In this document: positions 44,765 to 51,600 of the stretch, piece by piece
Layout of the letters: the number at the start of each line of letters is the position of its first letter
How positions within the stretch are numbered: position 1 is the stretch's first letter
Source: an uncultured Spirochaetota bacterium
GTDB taxonomy: Bacteria; Spirochaetota; Spirochaetia; SZUA-6; Fen-1364
Assembly (NCBI GenBank): GCA_963734545.1
Contig: CAVTHO010000003.1
Coordinates: 224,001 to 288,000, forward strand
DNA length: 64,000 nucleotides
Direction of reading: 5' to 3'
Made by a program: the position numbers and the translations under genes
Notes under the pieces: model-generated
Told to the model about the DNA's origin: nothing
What the model saw: only the letters and a program-made list of their open reading frames with translations
Database searches by the model: none

Positions 44765-45475
44765 ATGCCGCGCTTTGACGTAATTGCATTCGACGCGGAC
44801 GATACGCTGTGGCATTCGGAGCGTCTCTATGTGGAGGCGCAATCCGAGTTCAGGAAGCTCCTGGCGCGCTACGATTGTCCGGTCGACGAGCGCCTCCACC
44901 AGGTGGAGATGCGCAACCTGCGGCATTTTGGATACGGCATCAAGGGATTCGCCCTCTCCATGATAGAAACCGCGGTGGAGCTGACGGGCGGCCGGATCTC
45001 CGGCCCGGACATACAGGCCATCATCGACCGGGCAAAGAGAATGCTCGCGGCTGACGTGGAGCTGCTCGCGCACGTGGACGAAACCCTCAGGAGCCTGGCG
45101 GACAGGTACCCCCTGATGGTGATCACCAAGGGCGATCTCTACGACCAGGAGGGAAAGATCGCCCGCTCGGGGCTGGCCGCCCGGTTCCGCCACGTGGAGA
45201 TCGTGAGCGACAAGACCCGGGAGAGCTATGAGGCGATCCTCCGTCGTCACGGCATGGCGCCGGAGCGTTTTCTGATGGTGGGCAATTCACTGCGCTCGGA
45301 CATCCTGCCGGTGCTCGCACTGGGGGCAGTGGCGGTGTACGTGCCGCACGAGCTCACGTGGGCGCACGAGATGTCGGAGCCGCCCCCGGTCGGCCAGCCG
45401 GGCTATCACGAGATCGCGCACATCGGCCTGCTGCCGGCCCTGCTCGAGGGGCTGGAACGCCGCCGGGCGGCGTAG
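44765..45475 (+). CDS. HAD-superfamily hydrolase
   Basis: FDADDTLW, ITKGD, MVGNSLRSDILP, TWAHE. Confidence 0.92.
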   Translation: MPRFDVIAFDADDTLWHSERLYVEAQSEFRKLLARYDCPVDERLHQVEMRNLRHFGYGIKGFALSMIETAVELTGGRISGPDIQAIIDRAKRMLAADVELLAHVDETLRSLADRYPLMVITKGDLYDQEGKIARSGLAARFRHVEIVSDKTRESYEAILRRHGMAPERFLMVGNSLRSDILPVLALGAVAVYVPHELTWAHEMSEPPPVGQPGYHEIAHIGLLPALLEGLERRRAA

Positions 45476-45506
45476 CTGTCCGCCTCGCGTAGCCGTCCGC
45501 CTCCCG

Positions 45507-46544
45507 TCAGCCCGGTGACTTTCCCTGCCGGGAAAAGATCATGAGCGCCACCGGGAGATAGAGCACCAGAAGGATCACGAGAGGAGCGATCATCTGCCCC
45601 GGCGGGCGCTGGCCGATGAGCCCTCTGACCACGTAGGCGGCAATCAACAGGATGCCCATCAGGTTGTGCGCGCGGATCGTGAGCATGTTCGCCGGTGCCA
45701 TGGCAGCGGGGTTCATGTAGTTCCTGCGCAGCACGACGTATGCCTTTGCGAACAGCGGAAACGTGAGAAGGCTGACGTACGTCCAGAAGGTGGTCAGGCC
45801 GAGAATCGGGGAGACGAGGATGACGAGATACGCAATTGCCCCCGAGGCCCCATAGAGCCACACCCCCGCCTCGCGCCCGAACAGGACGACGAGGGTCCGC
45901 TTTCCTCCTGTCCCGTCGCTTTCCGAGTCGGGAATCTCGTTGATCGTGATCATGGCGAACATCATCAGGCCGAGAGGCAGAACGGCGAACACCGCTTCCC
46001 AGGAAAGCGCCCGGGTCTGAACGAAATACGATCCCAGGCCGATCACCACGCTGAAGTTGAGGAGCTGGGATACCTCGCCGAAGCCGCGATACGCGTAGCG
46101 AACCGGCGGTGCCGTGTAGAAATACGCGGACAGCACGCCGATGAGCCCGAACACGAGGACCGGCCAGCCGCGCGCCACGGTGAGGAACACCCCTGCCGCG
46201 ATGGTGAGAAAATACAGGGACAGGAACACGCCACGCATGTGCGCGGGCTTGATCGCACCCGATGTGAGAAGACCGCTGCCGCCCGAGTAGGGATTCTCGA
46301 TGTGACCCGCCGCGCGGTCCACGGACTGCTTGTAGTCGTAGTAGTCGTCGGTCATGTTGAGCGCCATGTGGTTCAGCGTGACGGCAAGGGTTACCACGAC
46401 GAAGTATCCAAGTGAAAACTCGCCGAGAATCGACCAGGCCACCACCGCTCCGAGAATGGCCGGCAGAGAGCTGGGGGGAACGAAATGGTATCGACAGGCA
46501 CGCCACCAGATCGCAAGCCTTTGGAAGGCCGTGTATGAGCCCAT
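45507..46544 (-). CDS. UbiA-family prenyltransferase, MenA/UBIAD1-like
   Basis: Asp-rich motifs NMTDDYYDYKQSVD and NEIPDSESDGTGGKRTL; SGGSG; YTAPP...YRGFGE; multiple TM helices. Confidence 0.88.
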   Translation of the reverse strand: MGSYTAFQRLAIWWRACRYHFVPPSSLPAILGAVVAWSILGEFSLGYFVVVTLAVTLNHMALNMTDDYYDYKQSVDRAAGHIENPYSGGSGLLTSGAIKPAHMRGVFLSLYFLTIAAGVFLTVARGWPVLVFGLIGVLSAYFYTAPPVRYAYRGFGEVSQLLNFSVVIGLGSYFVQTRALSWEAVFAVLPLGLMMFAMITINEIPDSESDGTGGKRTLVVLFGREAGVWLYGASGAIAYLVILVSPILGLTTFWTYVSLLTFPLFAKAYVVLRRNYMNPAAMAPANMLTIRAHNLMGILLIAAYVVRGLIGQRPPGQMIAPLVILLVLYLPVALMIFSRQGKSPG

Positions 46545-46717
46545 TTGAGAACCTCCCTTTGAAAGAAATGATAATACACGCCGAATCGGGTTAGAAGAAC
46601 GGCCCCGGGTTCCTTCCGGAGCTTTTCCACTTGACCCGGTCCCATGATGCTCATAGAATACATAGACTGTCTATGCAAAGACAGGCTACGCCAAGCGGTA
46701 CCCCGCATGGAGGTGGT

Positions 46718-48007
46718 ATGTACGATGTCGTCGTGGTGGGAGCAGGCTGCGCGGGCCCTGCAGCCGCCCGCAAGGCAGCGGGCCTGGGACTGCGAACCCT
46801 CCTGATAGAGAAAGCGCTGCACCCGGGTGCCAAGAACGTCTCCGGCACCTGTCTGAACACTGCCGCGCTCGCCGATCCGGACCTGCACTATCTCCTCGAG
46901 GGCCCTGTCGAGCGGGAGATCCGCTCCATGCGCACATACCACGTGAGCGCGGGGCGTACCACCGTGTTTCACGAGATACCTGCCCGCGGAATCCTCCTTC
47001 TCTCGATCCGCAGGGACCATTTCGACGCGTGGCACACCGAGCAGGCGCGCAAGGCAGGGGCCGAGGTGAAGCTGGGGTCCGCCGTGGTGGACCTCGTCGA
47101 GGAGCACGGCGCCGTGTGCGGCGTGGTGACCGACAACGGCGAACGCCACATGGCGCGGGTCGTCATTGACGCGGGCGGCGTGAACTCGCTGGTCGGCCGC
47201 AAGGCGGGGCTGATCGGACGGAGAAGCGGGACGGACATGATCCTGTATGTCAGCGTCGCGGTGCACCTGGGAAAGAGGCGCGTGGACGAACGGTTCGGCG
47301 ACACCATCGAGTACTACCTGGCCCCCGGATGCCAGCACAAGACGTGGCCGTGGATCTTCCCCAAGCGCGAGGTGATCACCCTCGGCACGGGCGGCTACAT
47401 GACGGCGGAGCTCATCAACAAGGACTTCCCGTCGGTCAATACGTACATGCAGAACTTCATGGACCTGCCGCCGGTCCGCGCGCGCCTGGAAGGGGGAAGA
47501 ATCGTCAACTGGGGGGTACACCTCGAATACGACGAGCCGGCGGCCGTGAGGGTACGCGACGGGTTGATCCTTTCCGGAGAGGCGGGAGGCTTTGTGACGC
47601 CTTTCCTCGGGGAGGGCATGCCGGAAGCTTTTTTCACCGGCATTTACGCGGCGGAAGCGGCCGCGAAGGCTGTCGAGGCGAACGACACGTCCGCCGCGCG
47701 CCTGCAGGGCGCGTACGAGGAGCGGCTCGATGGCAACCTCTTCATGAAGTCCTTCATGTACGTCGCGGCATGCAACAAGGCGTCGATCCTTTCCCGGTCG
47801 GACGTCGAGACCTCGACCATGATGCAGAGCGTGGCAATGGGGGGAGGATTCATCACGAGCGCCGTGCACGGCGGATGGATGGCCGCTGCGGAAGACGGGG
47901 ACATCGAAAAGGTGAGGCAGGCACGGGACTTCCTCGAGCTCCTGCAGCCCTACCGCACCATCGGGGCGGACTTCGAAGAGATCTATGAGGCGAGGAAAAG
48001 AAAATGA
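46718..48007 (+). CDS. FAD-dependent oxidoreductase, FixC/geranylgeranyl-reductase family
   Basis: YDVVVVGAGCAG, EKALHPGAKNVSG, RRDHFDAW, WIFPK, GEAGGFVTPFLGEG. Confidence 0.85.
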   Translation: MYDVVVVGAGCAGPAAARKAAGLGLRTLLIEKALHPGAKNVSGTCLNTAALADPDLHYLLEGPVEREIRSMRTYHVSAGRTTVFHEIPARGILLLSIRRDHFDAWHTEQARKAGAEVKLGSAVVDLVEEHGAVCGVVTDNGERHMARVVIDAGGVNSLVGRKAGLIGRRSGTDMILYVSVAVHLGKRRVDERFGDTIEYYLAPGCQHKTWPWIFPKREVITLGTGGYMTAELINKDFPSVNTYMQNFMDLPPVRARLEGGRIVNWGVHLEYDEPAAVRVRDGLILSGEAGGFVTPFLGEGMPEAFFTGIYAAEAAAKAVEANDTSAARLQGAYEERLDGNLFMKSFMYVAACNKASILSRSDVETSTMMQSVAMGGGFITSAVHGGWMAAAEDGDIEKVRQARDFLELLQPYRTIGADFEEIYEARKRK

Positions 48008-48265
48008 AGCTGGAAATGCGGGTTCGTTCCTACCCGGGGGAGACGGGAGAGTTCCTCGAGGTCGATGAGGCGCGGTGCAGCGGGTGCGGCGAATGCGCCC
48101 GGTTCTGCGTCCGCGGCGTCTGGCAGAGGGACGGGGCGGTGTATCGTCCCAGTCGTCTCTCCCTCTGCGCCGAATGCGGCGCGTGCTGGAACATCTGCCC
48201 CGCGGATGCCGTGCATTTTCGGCGAGCCTCGCGGCGGCACGGGGATCCGCTTCACGCACGGTTGA
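48004..48265 (+). CDS. FixX-like 2x[4Fe-4S] ferredoxin (frameshift near 48220)
   Basis: CSGCGECARFC and CAECGACWNICP; C-terminus FGEPRGGTGIRFTHG in the alternate frame; ATGA coupling to the reductase. Confidence 0.85.
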
Positions 48266-48278
48266 GAGGAGGCAGCAG

Positions 48279-48620
48279 ATGGCAACTCGACAGGAAGTGC
48301 TCGATACCCTGAAGGCGCAGGGTGAAAGGTTCCATCACGAAAAAATCGTTTCCTCGTTCAAGGGATGGAGCAGGGTCATGCAGTACCGTTTCCCCGACCT
48401 CGACCTCTCCCTTGCTCTTCCCGTCACGGAGGGCATGGCCGGCGCCGTGGTGGAAGGAACGGTCGAGGGGGCGCAGATCGTGTACGAGATGTCCAGCGAC
48501 ACGTTCCTTGCCATCGCCCGCAAGGAGCTGAGCGGGATGAAGGCATTCACGCAGAAGCTCGTCAAGGTGAAGGCATCCATGCCGGACCTCATGAAGCTGC
48601 AGAAGCTGGATTCGGTCTGA
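48279..48620 (+). CDS. SCP2 sterol/lipid-binding domain protein
   Basis: MSSDTFLAIARKELSGMKAFTQKLVKVKASMPDLMKL matches the SCP2 C-terminal pattern; GAGGAGG RBS. Confidence 0.75.
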   Translation: MATRQEVLDTLKAQGERFHHEKIVSSFKGWSRVMQYRFPDLDLSLALPVTEGMAGAVVEGTVEGAQIVYEMSSDTFLAIARKELSGMKAFTQKLVKVKASMPDLMKLQKLDSV

Positions 48621-48673
48621 GCCCGCCCCGGGGTGCCGCCGCGCGGAGCGCGGCAGCTGCGGCGAGGCCTGTC

Positions 48674-51600
48674 TCACTCCTGGGTGTGAATGGGCCCCCG
48701 CCACGCGGCCAGGTCCTCGACGTACTGACGGTAGTCCTCGAATCCCGCATCGAGACCGTACTGATAGACGAAACTGCTCGCAATGCTGCGGGCGAGGATG
48801 GCCCTCTGGTAGCTCTCCGGGAGCCGGTTCATGAGCCCTTCCAGGCCGACCTTGTCCACGAGGGCGGCGGGCACGTGCATGCGGAGGGAGTTCCTGCGCA
48901 CGGCGTCATTGGCAAAGAGAGTCGAACGCTCTATGGCGATCGTGATCTCATTGATCTTTCTGCTGACCGTCTCGGACAGCTCGGAGAGGGGCGCGCCGGT
49001 CGCGGCGCGGGTCTTCCACAGGAGGTCGAACTCCAGGTCCGCTTTCCGCCGTATGGCCTCGAGGACCTCCTCGATGTACCGCTCGCGGAATGCCGGCGCC
49101 GCTGATCCCGGGCGCACGGTCATGAGCTGATCGTGCTCATCGTCCGCGAGGCCCAGGCCGGCGAGAACCTCGAAAGAGGAGGAGATGACGCCGCCCTTGT
49201 TCGTGGAGCTGTCCTTGAAGAGAACGACTCCCTTCTCCTCGAGCTTCAGCCGTGCCTCCTGGGTGATGAAAAGGTTTGCGCCTTCCACGATCCAGCGGAA
49301 GAGGGGCCGGCCCTCCGCATCGATCAGCGAGCGCCAGTTCGAGAGATTGATCGACTTCGGTCTCCCGCCGCAGGGCACGAAGAGATCGGCCTTCATGCGA
49401 GGGTCCAGGTGGAACGTGTTGCGGAACCCCAGGCCGGATGCCACGCGCGTCCCGTCGGGCAGCGTCACGTCATGGTCCTTCACGCCGACCAGGAAACCCC
49501 TCGGTCCGAGCCGCGCGCGGTCGAAATGCGAGCTGTCACTGCCGGTGCGCGCCAGGCGCGCGAGCTCGTCCCGGGGCAGGCCGTCAGGATCATAGAGGAC
49601 GCCTCCCCCGTCCACGAGGGCGATGGTCTTGTCCTTCGAGATGAGGATCTCGTTGGAGCCGAGGTCCCCGTCAGGCCCGCCCGTCTGCGCCTTCCTGATC
49701 GTCTCCTCGGAGATCCCCAGCTCGCGGAGGATTCCCAGGACGTAGCGGTGAATGCCCTGGGTTGTCATGCCGTATTCCTTGTGCGAGATTCCTCCGAGAT
49801 TCGCTTCCTTGCCCGTCGTCACGGCCTTCCAATAGCGGTACCCCCGCTCGCGGGCGCGCAGGCACGCCCAGTCCATGAAGTCCGCCGTGCCTTCGTCCGG
49901 GCCGAAAAAGAGGATTTCCTCCTCCCAGCCGACTATGGTCTTGCTGTCCCCGGGGACGAGCAGGTCGAGCAGGGCATCGATGTAGCAGCGGAACGCCTGG
50001 CGGGCGTCCTCGCGGCTGGTGCCGAAAGCCGGCAGGATGATCCCCTTCGAGCCCCCCTCCGGGATGTCCTTGTTCTTCTTGTTCTGGGTGAAGGCGAGGT
50101 TGTAGCACTCCTCGAACAGCGAGTCCGCATTGTGGTGGTACTCGTCGTACGTGGCCGCGTGCAGGAGACGGATGCCTCCGCGCGCGATGTCCTTGAAGCG
50201 CACGTGGAATCCGTGGAAATCGCGGCCGACAACGAAGAACACGCCGAAGGGCACGCTCTCCATTGCGGCGCGGGAGAAGAAGCCGCTTGCCAGGCGGAAC
50301 GAGAGGGCTGATTTCACCGGCAGGAAGAAATTCGTCCGTACGATGGCATCCACGAAGCGCACCGAGCAGCGGATCACTTCCGCCTCCTCGGAGGTGAGGG
50401 TGGAGGAGGCCAGGACCGCGTCCAGTCGGGCGCGGGCGCTCCTCTCCGCCTCCGGATCCTGGTCCCCCGGGGTGAATCGGGCCGTGAACAGGCCGAAAAG
50501 GTCGTGGACGATATCCGGTCTCTCCCTGTACACCTGTTCGATGACCGCCAGTGGATACATGTCGCGGTCGATGCGCGCCTGGATCGAGGCCAGGATTCCC
50601 GAGAGCTCCCTGTCAGAATGGAAACGCTCGGAGAGGAGGCCGATGTCGGGATCCGGCACCGTGATGAACTGGTGGATGAAGGGAACCGCCGCATTCACGA
50701 AGTTCGCCTCGGCCGGCGAGTAGGTCCCCTTTTCCACGAGCGCGCCGATCTGCCCCGGCGGGTACAGGCTGACCTCCACGAGCTGGCGAAGAAGGTCCGC
50801 CGGGAAATCCGTCCGCGCATAGAGGGTCGCGACGATCACGGGCCGGGCTCCCCCGAAGGTCACCGTGTACTTCCGCGTGAGCTCGATCCCGTTCCTCGCC
50901 ATGACCCGGGTGATGTTCGCCTGGAAATGATTGATCCTTCCGCGGGGGAACCCGATCATGACCCTGTTCTCCCGGGTCTCCGCCTTGAGGGAATGCGCGA
51001 TCACAATGCTCCCTGTCGAGAGCACGGCGTCGCGCACCGCGACATAGCGCTCCCGCGCGGCGGAGTCGGTGAGACTGAGGAAGCTGGCAGGGGCGATTTC
51101 ACCGATCGTCTCGCCCTGCTGCGGATCGGAGCCGCGGTACACCACGTACAGGAGCAGGTTCGCCAGCGGCGAATAGACGGCGACGTTCAGAAGGCGCCCG
51201 CCGGCGTAGTATTCCCGCTCGATCTCCTCCTCCACCTCGAGGCCCCGGCGGCGGTGCACCCAGTGGACGGACGTGCCGTCGGGCGAGGTCGAGGATACCT
51301 TCATCTGCGCATAGGTCTCGGAGTCGAGACCGGAAAGCTCATAGGAGCGGTTCAACATGATCTGGCGCGCCATGAGCGGGGCGGGGGTGTTCCGAAGATA
51401 GTACTCGGGGAATTTCAGATCCGTCAGCCACCACTTCATCTCCTGAAGGATGCGCTCTTCGGTGAGATCGGCGATCTGGGTGTAATCCTCGGTGCTCCCT
51501 TTGCAGGAGATTTCGTCGTAGACCTGCGAGAGGAAATCCGGGTCGAGCCCCGTCCGCGCCTGAATGACGTCGAGAACGACTCTCCGCGGATACAGGACCG

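Follow-up and report, generated by a model that had tools for sequence, protein, structure and literature searches.

A reductase-ferredoxin-SCP2 cassette of Asgard archaea and a wetland-sediment spirochaete as a candidate ferredoxin-driven reductase of lipid double bonds

In a 64-kb stretch of DNA from a wetland-sediment spirochaete (positions 224001-288000 of contig C3 of the source genome, G000; hereafter the window), a gene for a MenA-like UbiA prenyltransferase lies divergently beside three genes for a putative FAD reductase of the geranylgeranyl reductase (GGR)/FixC superfamily (termed RED), a FixX-type ferredoxin and an SCP2-fold lipid-carrier protein. The question that this locus raises is whether the four genes form one system that makes and reduces a prenylated molecule, as an earlier note on this DNA had claimed, and what the conserved part of the locus does. 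The source genome comprises 5.1 Mb in 10 contigs and is 89% complete. Open reading frames (ORFs) called with table 11 and scans of the window with Pfam and NCBIfam families confirm all four genes at the place given in that note. The functional unit is the RED-ferredoxin-SCP2 triad, termed the cassette below, and not the set of four genes. We favour, with some reserve, the reading that the cassette encodes a self-contained, ferredoxin-driven reductase of the C=C bonds of lipids, probably isoprenoids, with a dedicated SCP2 carrier.

The linkage of the three genes was surveyed at two levels. The species-level survey, in which one genome per species of the GTDB collection was scanned with family alignments, yields at least 25 loci, and other hosts are possible. 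The order-level survey covers the flanks of the RED gene in 10 other RED-positive genomes of the spirochaete order. Three loci are common to both sets, leaving 32 distinct loci. By record title, the 25 listed species-level loci consist of 4 from Spirochaetota and 21 from archaea, and 19 of the archaeal loci belong to named Asgard lineages (11 to Heimdallarchaeota, 4 to Promethearchaeota/-ati and 1 each to Hod-, Hermod-, Thor- and Odinarchaeota). Among these listed matches, the ferredoxin gene directly follows the RED gene in 24 of 25 loci, the exception (L021) lying at a contig end, and the SCP2 gene directly follows the ferredoxin gene in 23 of 25, being missing from L019 and from the contig-end locus L021. 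At the order level, the ferredoxin gene adjoins the RED gene in 8 of 10 loci, one of the other two being cut by a contig end and the other (G490) lacking the gene, and the SCP2 gene is adjacent in 7 of 10. When the listed species-level matches and the order-level loci are combined, the ferredoxin gene is adjacent in 29 and the SCP2 gene in 27 of the 32 distinct loci, and most misses are contig ends. In the window, the stop codon of the RED gene and the start codon of the ferredoxin gene overlap in an ATGA at 48004-48007. This overlap, together with the conservation of the triad in relatives, bears out the earlier description of the three genes as a coupled unit.

Little else is conserved around the cassette. 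When stop-to-stop ORFs of 11 spirochaete loci are compared, the triad alone is common to them. Clustering of the neighbours and a Pfam scan of 40 representatives reveal only lineage-level synteny beyond the triad, with neither a UbiA nor an electron-transfer flavoprotein (ETF) gene among the sampled neighbours. One Heimdall group shares an M20 peptidase, a glycosyltransferase and a P-type ATPase, and another group shares NifU and a metallo-beta-lactamase-fold protein. The HAD hydrolase and glutamate dehydrogenase genes of the window are beside the cassette in none of the 25 listed species-level loci. Likewise, no synteny with the window flanks (HAD hydrolase, large glutamate dehydrogenase, MoxR, DUF58) is detected around the cassettes and prenyltransferases of relatives with a greedy ORF caller, which is weak on high-GC DNA.

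The prenyltransferase gene is not part of the conserved unit. It is next to the cassette in none of the 25 listed species-level loci, none of the 10 order-level loci and, thus, none of the 32 distinct loci. Orthologues of the prenyltransferase (62-87% identity) were identified in seven further genomes of the order. Of these, G429 alone carries the cassette as well, on a different contig; the flanks of these seven orthologues have nothing in common with the window. With the prenyltransferase gene adjacent in 0/32 loci and its orthologues spread independently of the cassette, linkage of all four genes is restricted to the species-level population of the window. The claim of a four-gene system for making and reducing one molecule, which called for a conserved linkage of the prenyltransferase with the three-gene operon, is therefore not supported. 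In the window itself the juxtaposition is not an assembly chimera, because the junction between the prenyltransferase and RED genes is present in contigs of other sequencing runs (46331-46860 in X2 and 46321-46962 in X4). The divergent spacer, given as about 170 bp in the earlier note, measures 173 bp. Three sigma-70-like sites are found in 45300-48900, and all three are inside the spacer, against 0.5 expected from shuffling; one of them, TTGACC-17-TAGAAT at 46631-46659 on the forward strand, matches the sigma-70-like pattern at 10 of 12 positions.

These features of the spacer keep alive, as a lineage-restricted variant, the possibility that the prenyltransferase supplies a quinone or lipid with a prenyl tail, which the cassette then saturates in the manner of MenJ, to give a modified menaquinone-type carrier. 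The GGR-family enzymes MenJ of mycobacteria and AF_0648 of Archaeoglobus saturate a quinone tail. The divergent arrangement around a common spacer with promoter-like sites and the presence of the junction in contigs of related wetland populations are consistent with such a role. Moreover, the source genome probably uses a quinone or quinol, because it has cytochrome bd oxidase genes and a MenG/UbiE-like methyltransferase that scores close to the cut-off (156.1 vs 158.35). The absence of the prenyltransferase from the neighbourhood of the 32 other cassettes surveyed and its co-occurrence with the cassette in only one of the seven orthologue-bearing genomes of the order argue against it, as does the finding that a homologue of the prenyltransferase (26-30% identical) is present in only two of five cassette-bearing Asgard genomes. 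In addition, RED scores only 51.4 bits against the MenJ equivalog model (NF045655; cut-off 700), and this 89% complete genome has no match to MqnA and no match to MenB above the cut-off. The prenyltransferase clearly belongs to the Pfam UbiA family (87.4 bits, cut-off 34.2), and its best NCBIfam matches are MenA types, all below their cut-offs (NF004749, 154.1 vs 277; TIGR00751, 89.5 vs 102.15). The source genome has five UbiA-family genes, namely those of a heme o synthase (over the cut-off), three MenA-like proteins (all below the cut-off, including that of the window) and one protein resembling digeranylgeranylglyceryl phosphate (DGGGP) synthase or chlorophyll synthase. Considering the lack of a conserved link to a quinone prenyltransferase and the low MenJ score, a MenJ-like role of the cassette is quite improbable.

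RED is related to both GGR and FixC, and its score is below the curated cut-off of either family. It scores 142.3 bits against the GGR superfamily model (GG-red-SF, TIGR02032; cut-off 158.8), and an Asgard member of the family (P0117) scores 152.8 bits against the same model. The scores against the two NCBIfam FixC models are 101.6 bits (NF007542; cut-off 610) and 94.9 bits (cut-off 466). A HMMER search of 1.84 billion cluster representatives returns a single full-length 50%-identity cluster with 62% identity to the query and two sister clusters with 43% and 37%; all remaining proteins have at most 36% identity. A look-up in the ESM Atlas gives only generic clusters of FixC, GGR and FAD-oxidoreductases. 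When the family profile is compared with the PDB, the Thermoplasma digeranylgeranylglycerophospholipid (DGGGPL) reductase/GGR (3OZ2) scores highest (135.8 bits), followed by Thermotoga FixC (7KOE_C, 99.2 bits) and Sulfolobus GGR (about 52 bits). The AlphaFold model of RED (pLDDT 82.6) is predicted to have the three-domain fold of GGR. The top Foldseek match of this model is also 3OZ2, with template-modelling (TM) scores of 0.76/0.81 and a root-mean-square deviation of 4.4 over 413 columns, and the TM score to 7KOE_C is 0.71.

The phylogeny points in the same direction. In a quick maximum-likelihood tree of 59 sequences, with SH-aLRT supports and no bootstrap, RED groups with its two sisters in a single clade (SH-aLRT 100), which joins a group of canonical Asgard GGR paralogues weakly (88), and the clade that holds E. 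coli FixC (SH-aLRT 100) excludes RED. A grouping of RED with bona fide FixC, which would have undermined the earlier note, is thus not found; on this tree, RED is not a bona fide FixC.

The motifs of GGR, as defined in the accessible part of a review of archaeal GGR paralogues (PMC10821996), are GxGxxG, RxxFD, LxGD, the cavity motif PxxYxWxFP (PxxxWxFP) and Cys47. The RED family, in an alignment of 16 sequences, has the family-wide motifs GAGCAG, RRDxFD, WPWIFPK and LxGE. GxGxxG is therefore kept, and RxxFD is kept as an invariant RRDxFD, while LxGD is replaced by LxGE in 15 of the 16 sequences. The cavity motif reads (H/Y)K(T)WPWIFPK; it lacks the first P, but W-x-F-P never varies, and the Y position always holds an aromatic residue. 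Cys45 (SGTCLN), which is also invariant, is two residues away from the position aligned by HMMER to Cys47 of Thermoplasma; the sister proteins P0124 and P0125 have Ala at the Cys position. The non-canonical DAGG and GEAGG motifs pointed out previously are present as VIDAGGVNS and SGEAGGF, and they are invariant or nearly so across the RED family. Judged from its sequence, RED looks like a GGR-type alkene reductase with some FixC-like stretches, and the label of ETF-quinone oxidoreductase or FixC that is automatically given to RED genes is probably misleading.

The FixC-like stretches suggest another explanation, that the cassette is a FixCX-type module in which a distant ETF feeds the pair, a quinone is reduced, and SCP2 presents this quinone in the manner of UbiJ/UbiT. 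Several observations fit this explanation. The ferredoxin has the architecture of FixX, RED and E. coli FixC have 29% identity and both contain GAKNVxG and RxxFD, many family members carry the ETF-quinone oxidoreductase label at JGI, and ETF genes are found in all 11 cassette-bearing genomes checked (the source genome and 10 others). However, RED lies outside the FixC clade, and it keeps the WxWxFP motif, which is absent from E. coli FixC; the latter has GGGFLYTN where RED has WPWIFP. The 64-kb window contains no ETF gene, as reported before for FixAB, and none is found among the neighbours sampled in relatives. The source genome has a single ETF pair. This pair shares an operon on contig C8 with an acyl-CoA dehydrogenase gene, and its EtfA has an N-terminal ferredoxin domain. 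In two Asgard genomes (G492 and G496), the ETF pair adjoins a different GGR/FixC paralogue and not RED, so that these genomes hold separate, ETF-adjacent FixC-like proteins. Many Asgard lineages are presumed to have no quinones. A FixCX-type function is therefore improbable. ETF may still serve the cassette as a distant electron donor, because all 11 cassette-bearing genomes tested have ETF genes.

The partners of RED are consistent with a ferredoxin-driven lipid enzyme. The ferredoxin matches the Fer4 families of Pfam with both four-cysteine motifs conserved, and would accordingly be expected to bind two iron-sulfur clusters. Its alignment with E. coli FixX takes in the C-terminal PRGxxGVxFxxG, and its only end-to-end match in the PDB is the EtfX chain 7KOE_D; RED is thus paired with a ferredoxin of FixX type. 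The SCP2 protein matches PF02036 (26.6 bits, cut-off 21.3) and has no match among the NCBIfam models at E <= 0.01. The best PDB matches of the SCP2 family profile are eukaryotic SCP2/nonspecific lipid-transfer proteins (E = 3e-7). Identity of SCP2 between the two domains of life is about 40%, with an invariant C-terminal KLQKL. A complex prediction of RED, ferredoxin and SCP2, with SCP2 as the partner, gives a score of 0.01 against a mark of 0.32, which counts neither for nor against binding.

From these data the following mechanism may be proposed for the favoured reading, that is, the ferredoxin-driven reduction of lipid C=C bonds. The FixX-type ferredoxin would draw low-potential electrons from the fermentative ferredoxin pool or from some other donor and hand them singly to the presumed FAD of RED. 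The flavin, once reduced, would saturate a C=C bond in a hydrophobic molecule, an isoprenoid chain being the likeliest, and this substrate would sit in the GGR-type aromatic cavity formed with WxWxFP. SCP2 would solubilise the greasy substrate or product and pass it on. There is a precedent for such electron delivery, since the GGR of Methanosarcina acetivorans, according to the part of PMC10821996 that is accessible, requires the ferredoxin of its own locus. Of the role in prenyl or lipid saturation that the earlier note had assigned to the locus, the GGR-like chemistry stands as the most plausible one in view of the family placement and the motifs, whereas the four-gene system with the prenyltransferase is not supported.

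Several points weigh against this reading. The score of RED is below the GG-red-SF cut-off, the aspartate of LxGD is a glutamate, the ADG motif is rearranged, and the equivalent of Cys47 aligns inexactly. The ferredoxin partner and the GxKNVSG stretch of RED are FixC/FixX-like, and ETF genes are present somewhere in 10 of 10 other cassette-bearing genomes tested, as well as in the source genome. No gene of a substrate pathway is conserved beside the cassette, and because of this the term isoprenoid for the substrate rests on family resemblance. Finally, the ferredoxin gene of the window is frameshifted as assembled, and several relatives have broken copies of the cassette (G447, G490 and the SCP2 gene of L036).

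The frameshift could mean that the cassette of the source genome is a decaying, non-functional acquisition. The ferredoxin frame as assembled runs from 48004 to 48312. A single additional base at about 48215 displaces it and puts the last 17 ferredoxin codons out of frame; the ferredoxin C-terminus, ending ...GEPRGGTGIRFTHG, sits in the +1 frame of the window. In relatives, the N- and C-terminal parts are contiguous and in frame, and the product of 86 residues would end at 48265 in window terms. Broken copies are seen elsewhere. In G447 (C33:16449-17727) and G490 (C137:4787-5919), which are represented by loci L053-L055, L064 and L065, the RED gene is interrupted by stops or frame changes, and in G490 the ferredoxin gene is also gone from between the RED and SCP2 genes. 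In a Heimdallarchaeota metagenome-assembled genome (MAG), the SCP2 gene (L036:8544-8897) contains TAA in frame at two positions where Gln is conserved. On the other hand, DNA alignment reveals that the base at 48215 is missing from five of five relatives, and contigs of the wetland runs X1 and X4, which are about 98% identical to the window, are without it. In the source assembly, the Pfam match of cytochrome bd subunit I (C8:809812-811090) is split into two successive segments, covering positions 1-307 and 298-416 of the model, which looks like another frameshift. An assembly indel is the simplest explanation of the ferredoxin frameshift, because the X1 and X4 contigs lack the extra base and the cytochrome bd gene is split in the same assembly; a strain-specific frameshift is the alternative. 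The RED and SCP2 genes of the window are intact, and its ferredoxin retains eight of eight cysteines. It is consequently very doubtful that the cassette of the source genome is decaying.

Other irregular copies were noticed in the same comparison. The TAA codons of the L036 SCP2 gene correspond to CAA in a sister locus, the gene ends with TAG TAA, and the RED and ferredoxin genes of L036 are intact; these TAA codons could be C-to-T damage or error, signs of a decaying gene, or local recoding. L039:8547-11035 has an insertion of about 2.4 kb between the ferredoxin and SCP2 genes, with a second C-terminal segment of the ferredoxin directly before the SCP2 gene. The ferredoxin C-terminal segment is duplicated in tandem in L063:6656-6788, and the ferredoxin of L058:6699-7001 contains a repeat-like insertion of 14 residues.

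The cassette is distributed patchily in two domains of life. RED is present in 11 of 92 genomes of the spirochaete order, with the source genome counted, including 2 of 20 other genomes of the same genus, and in none of 400 other genomes in an even sample of the phylum. The cassette is present in 36 of 301 sampled Asgard genomes, a count for which five candidates per genome were scored in MAGs whose completeness is not established. RED proteins from Spirochaetota and Asgard MAGs are 59-89% identical to that of the window, and the mean column identity across the two domains is 69% for RED, 81% for the ferredoxin and 64% for SCP2. In the quick tree, the spirochaete REDs form one subclade (98-100) within a polytomy of Asgard sequences. 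This position suggests a single cross-domain transfer of the cassette. The quick tree itself gives no direction, but the wider Asgard diversity would fit a transfer from Asgard archaea to Spirochaetota. Horizontal transfer would thus have carried the cassette between Asgard archaea and a few Spirochaetota of sediments, and in the source spirochaete it would have come to lie beside a MenA-like prenyltransferase gene already resident there.

The cassette is an accessory trait in both groups. It might instead be an Asgard housekeeping GGR of membrane lipids that was copied into spirochaetes, and membership of the GGR superfamily and a ferredoxin partner, which the accessible part of PMC10821996 describes for the lipid GGR of a methanogen, agree with this. 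The patchy occurrence in both groups, however, argues against a housekeeping role in membrane lipids, at least as far as the Asgard count given above reflects true absences. In addition, each of five Asgard genomes has 6-10 GGR-family paralogues, several of which reach scores far above that of RED with the GGR model (as high as 213.8 bits vs about 160). A housekeeping function is therefore highly improbable. The high conservation, the patchy cross-domain spread and the lack of linked biosynthetic genes together point to a self-sufficient trait that acts on a substrate available to Spirochaetota and Asgard archaea alike.

Like the GGRs of archaea (M. acetivorans; Thermoplasma, 3OZ2; Sulfolobus, 3ATQ), RED has a predicted FAD fold, with 3OZ2 as its best match in both sequence and structure, and it shares GxGxxG, RxxFD and the aromatic WxFP with them; a small ferredoxin is encoded alongside in both cases, as far as the accessible part of PMC10821996 describes it. 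RED differs from archaeal GGR in that it forms an isolated clade, with at most 36% identity to any protein other than its two sisters, scores below the superfamily cut-off, has LxGE instead of LxGD and W for the Y of the motif, and is accompanied by a FixX-type ferredoxin and an SCP2 protein. Like FixC and FixX (E. coli fixCX; chains C and D of Thermotoga 7KOE), the cassette encodes a flavoprotein translationally coupled to a predicted 2x[4Fe-4S] ferredoxin, the length and C-terminal motif of which match those of FixX. It differs from FixCX in that fixAB or etfAB is not alongside, RED lies far below the cut-offs of the FixC models, and the cassette has a GGR-type cavity motif and an SCP2 partner. 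UbiJ and UbiT are small SCP2-fold proteins of ubiquinone biosynthesis, which are presumed to bind prenylated intermediates on behalf of soluble enzymes. The cassette SCP2 differs from them in lacking an NCBIfam match and in having eukaryotic SCP2 proteins as its nearest solved relatives.

Enzymes of the GGR family can also modify lipids that are non-phosphorylated and largely cyclic, acting on their short isoprenoid side chains, as described for Bsr, the sterol C-24 reductase of Myxococcota, in the accessible part of PMC12004948. Unlike the cassette, Bsr is encoded within sterol gene clusters, and that part of the paper mentions no ferredoxin or SCP2 partner. A description of the combination of GGR, SCP2 and ferredoxin was not found in the open-access literature of PMC and bioRxiv, including searches directed at FixC/FixX and Asgard archaea, and the accessible part of the review of archaeal GGR paralogues (PMC10821996) mentions neither 'Asgard' nor 'SCP'. 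The three-gene core is real, conserved and, apparently, an undescribed variant of the known theme of ferredoxin-dependent GGR.

A constrained, isolated family common to Asgard archaea and a few sediment Spirochaetota points to a specific, transferable transformation of lipids in anoxic sediments. Asgard archaea have many GGR paralogues without an assigned function; knowledge of the substrate would supply one for a member of this group, and could reveal an enzyme of anaerobic lipid hydrogenation. One speculative form of this idea, which is rather unlikely as it stands, is that the cassette is a portable device for lipid biohydrogenation, with which fermenters would dump surplus ferredoxin electrons on exogenous sedimentary isoprenoids. 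Phytol, polyprenols and the side chains of sterols would be candidate substrates; SCP2 would extract and solubilise them, and their reduction would serve as an electron sink. If true, biohydrogenation would explain the patchy occurrence of about 12% in both groups, the highly conserved cross-domain transfer, the lack of a linked biosynthetic gene and the eukaryote-like SCP2.

The coordinates of the genes are given in Table 1. The RED ORF spans 46631-48007, and its true start is taken to be the ATG at 46718, because this codon is preceded by the ribosome-binding site GGAGGTGG and every homologue starts there. The SCP2 start codon, ATG at 48279, is preceded by GAGAGGAGG.

Table 1. Features of the prenyltransferase-cassette locus (window positions) and further UbiA-family genes of the source genome (contig positions)
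Feature	Position	Strand	Remarks
MenA-like UbiA prenyltransferase	45507-46544	-	345 aa; Pfam UbiA match
Divergent spacer	46545-46717	.	173 bp; promoter-like sites
RED, GGR/FixC-superfamily FAD reductase (putative)	46718-48007	+	429 aa; core of the conserved cassette
FixX-type 2x[4Fe-4S] ferredoxin (predicted)	48004-48265	+	86 aa in relatives; window copy has +1 base at ~48215
SCP2-fold lipid-carrier protein	48279-48620	+	113 aa; PF02036
UbiA-family gene	C3:13514-14404		
UbiA-family gene	C5:433583-434674		
UbiA-family gene	C7:709894-711057		
UbiA-family gene	C8:844170-845189		

Three further observations were made in the course of this analysis. In two related Promethearchaeati MAG loci (L035:1808-3792 and L040), genes for a steroid-reductase-like DUF1295 membrane protein and a Rieske/VanA-type oxygenase are located just upstream of the cassette. 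A metagenome scan with the sister proteins P0124 and P0125 returns one full-length relative (L133:5001-7847), which is 39% identical to P0124. A gene for an 88-residue 2x[4Fe-4S] ferredoxin lies directly downstream of this sister-type reductase gene, without an SCP2 gene, and the opposite strand carries genes for a UbiE/COQ5-like methyltransferase and a PEMT-like membrane methyltransferase; no inference is drawn from this single case. In the window, the bin 46001-48000 has the highest AT skew (0.145) among all 2-kb bins, which may be a trace of a foreign origin of the cassette.

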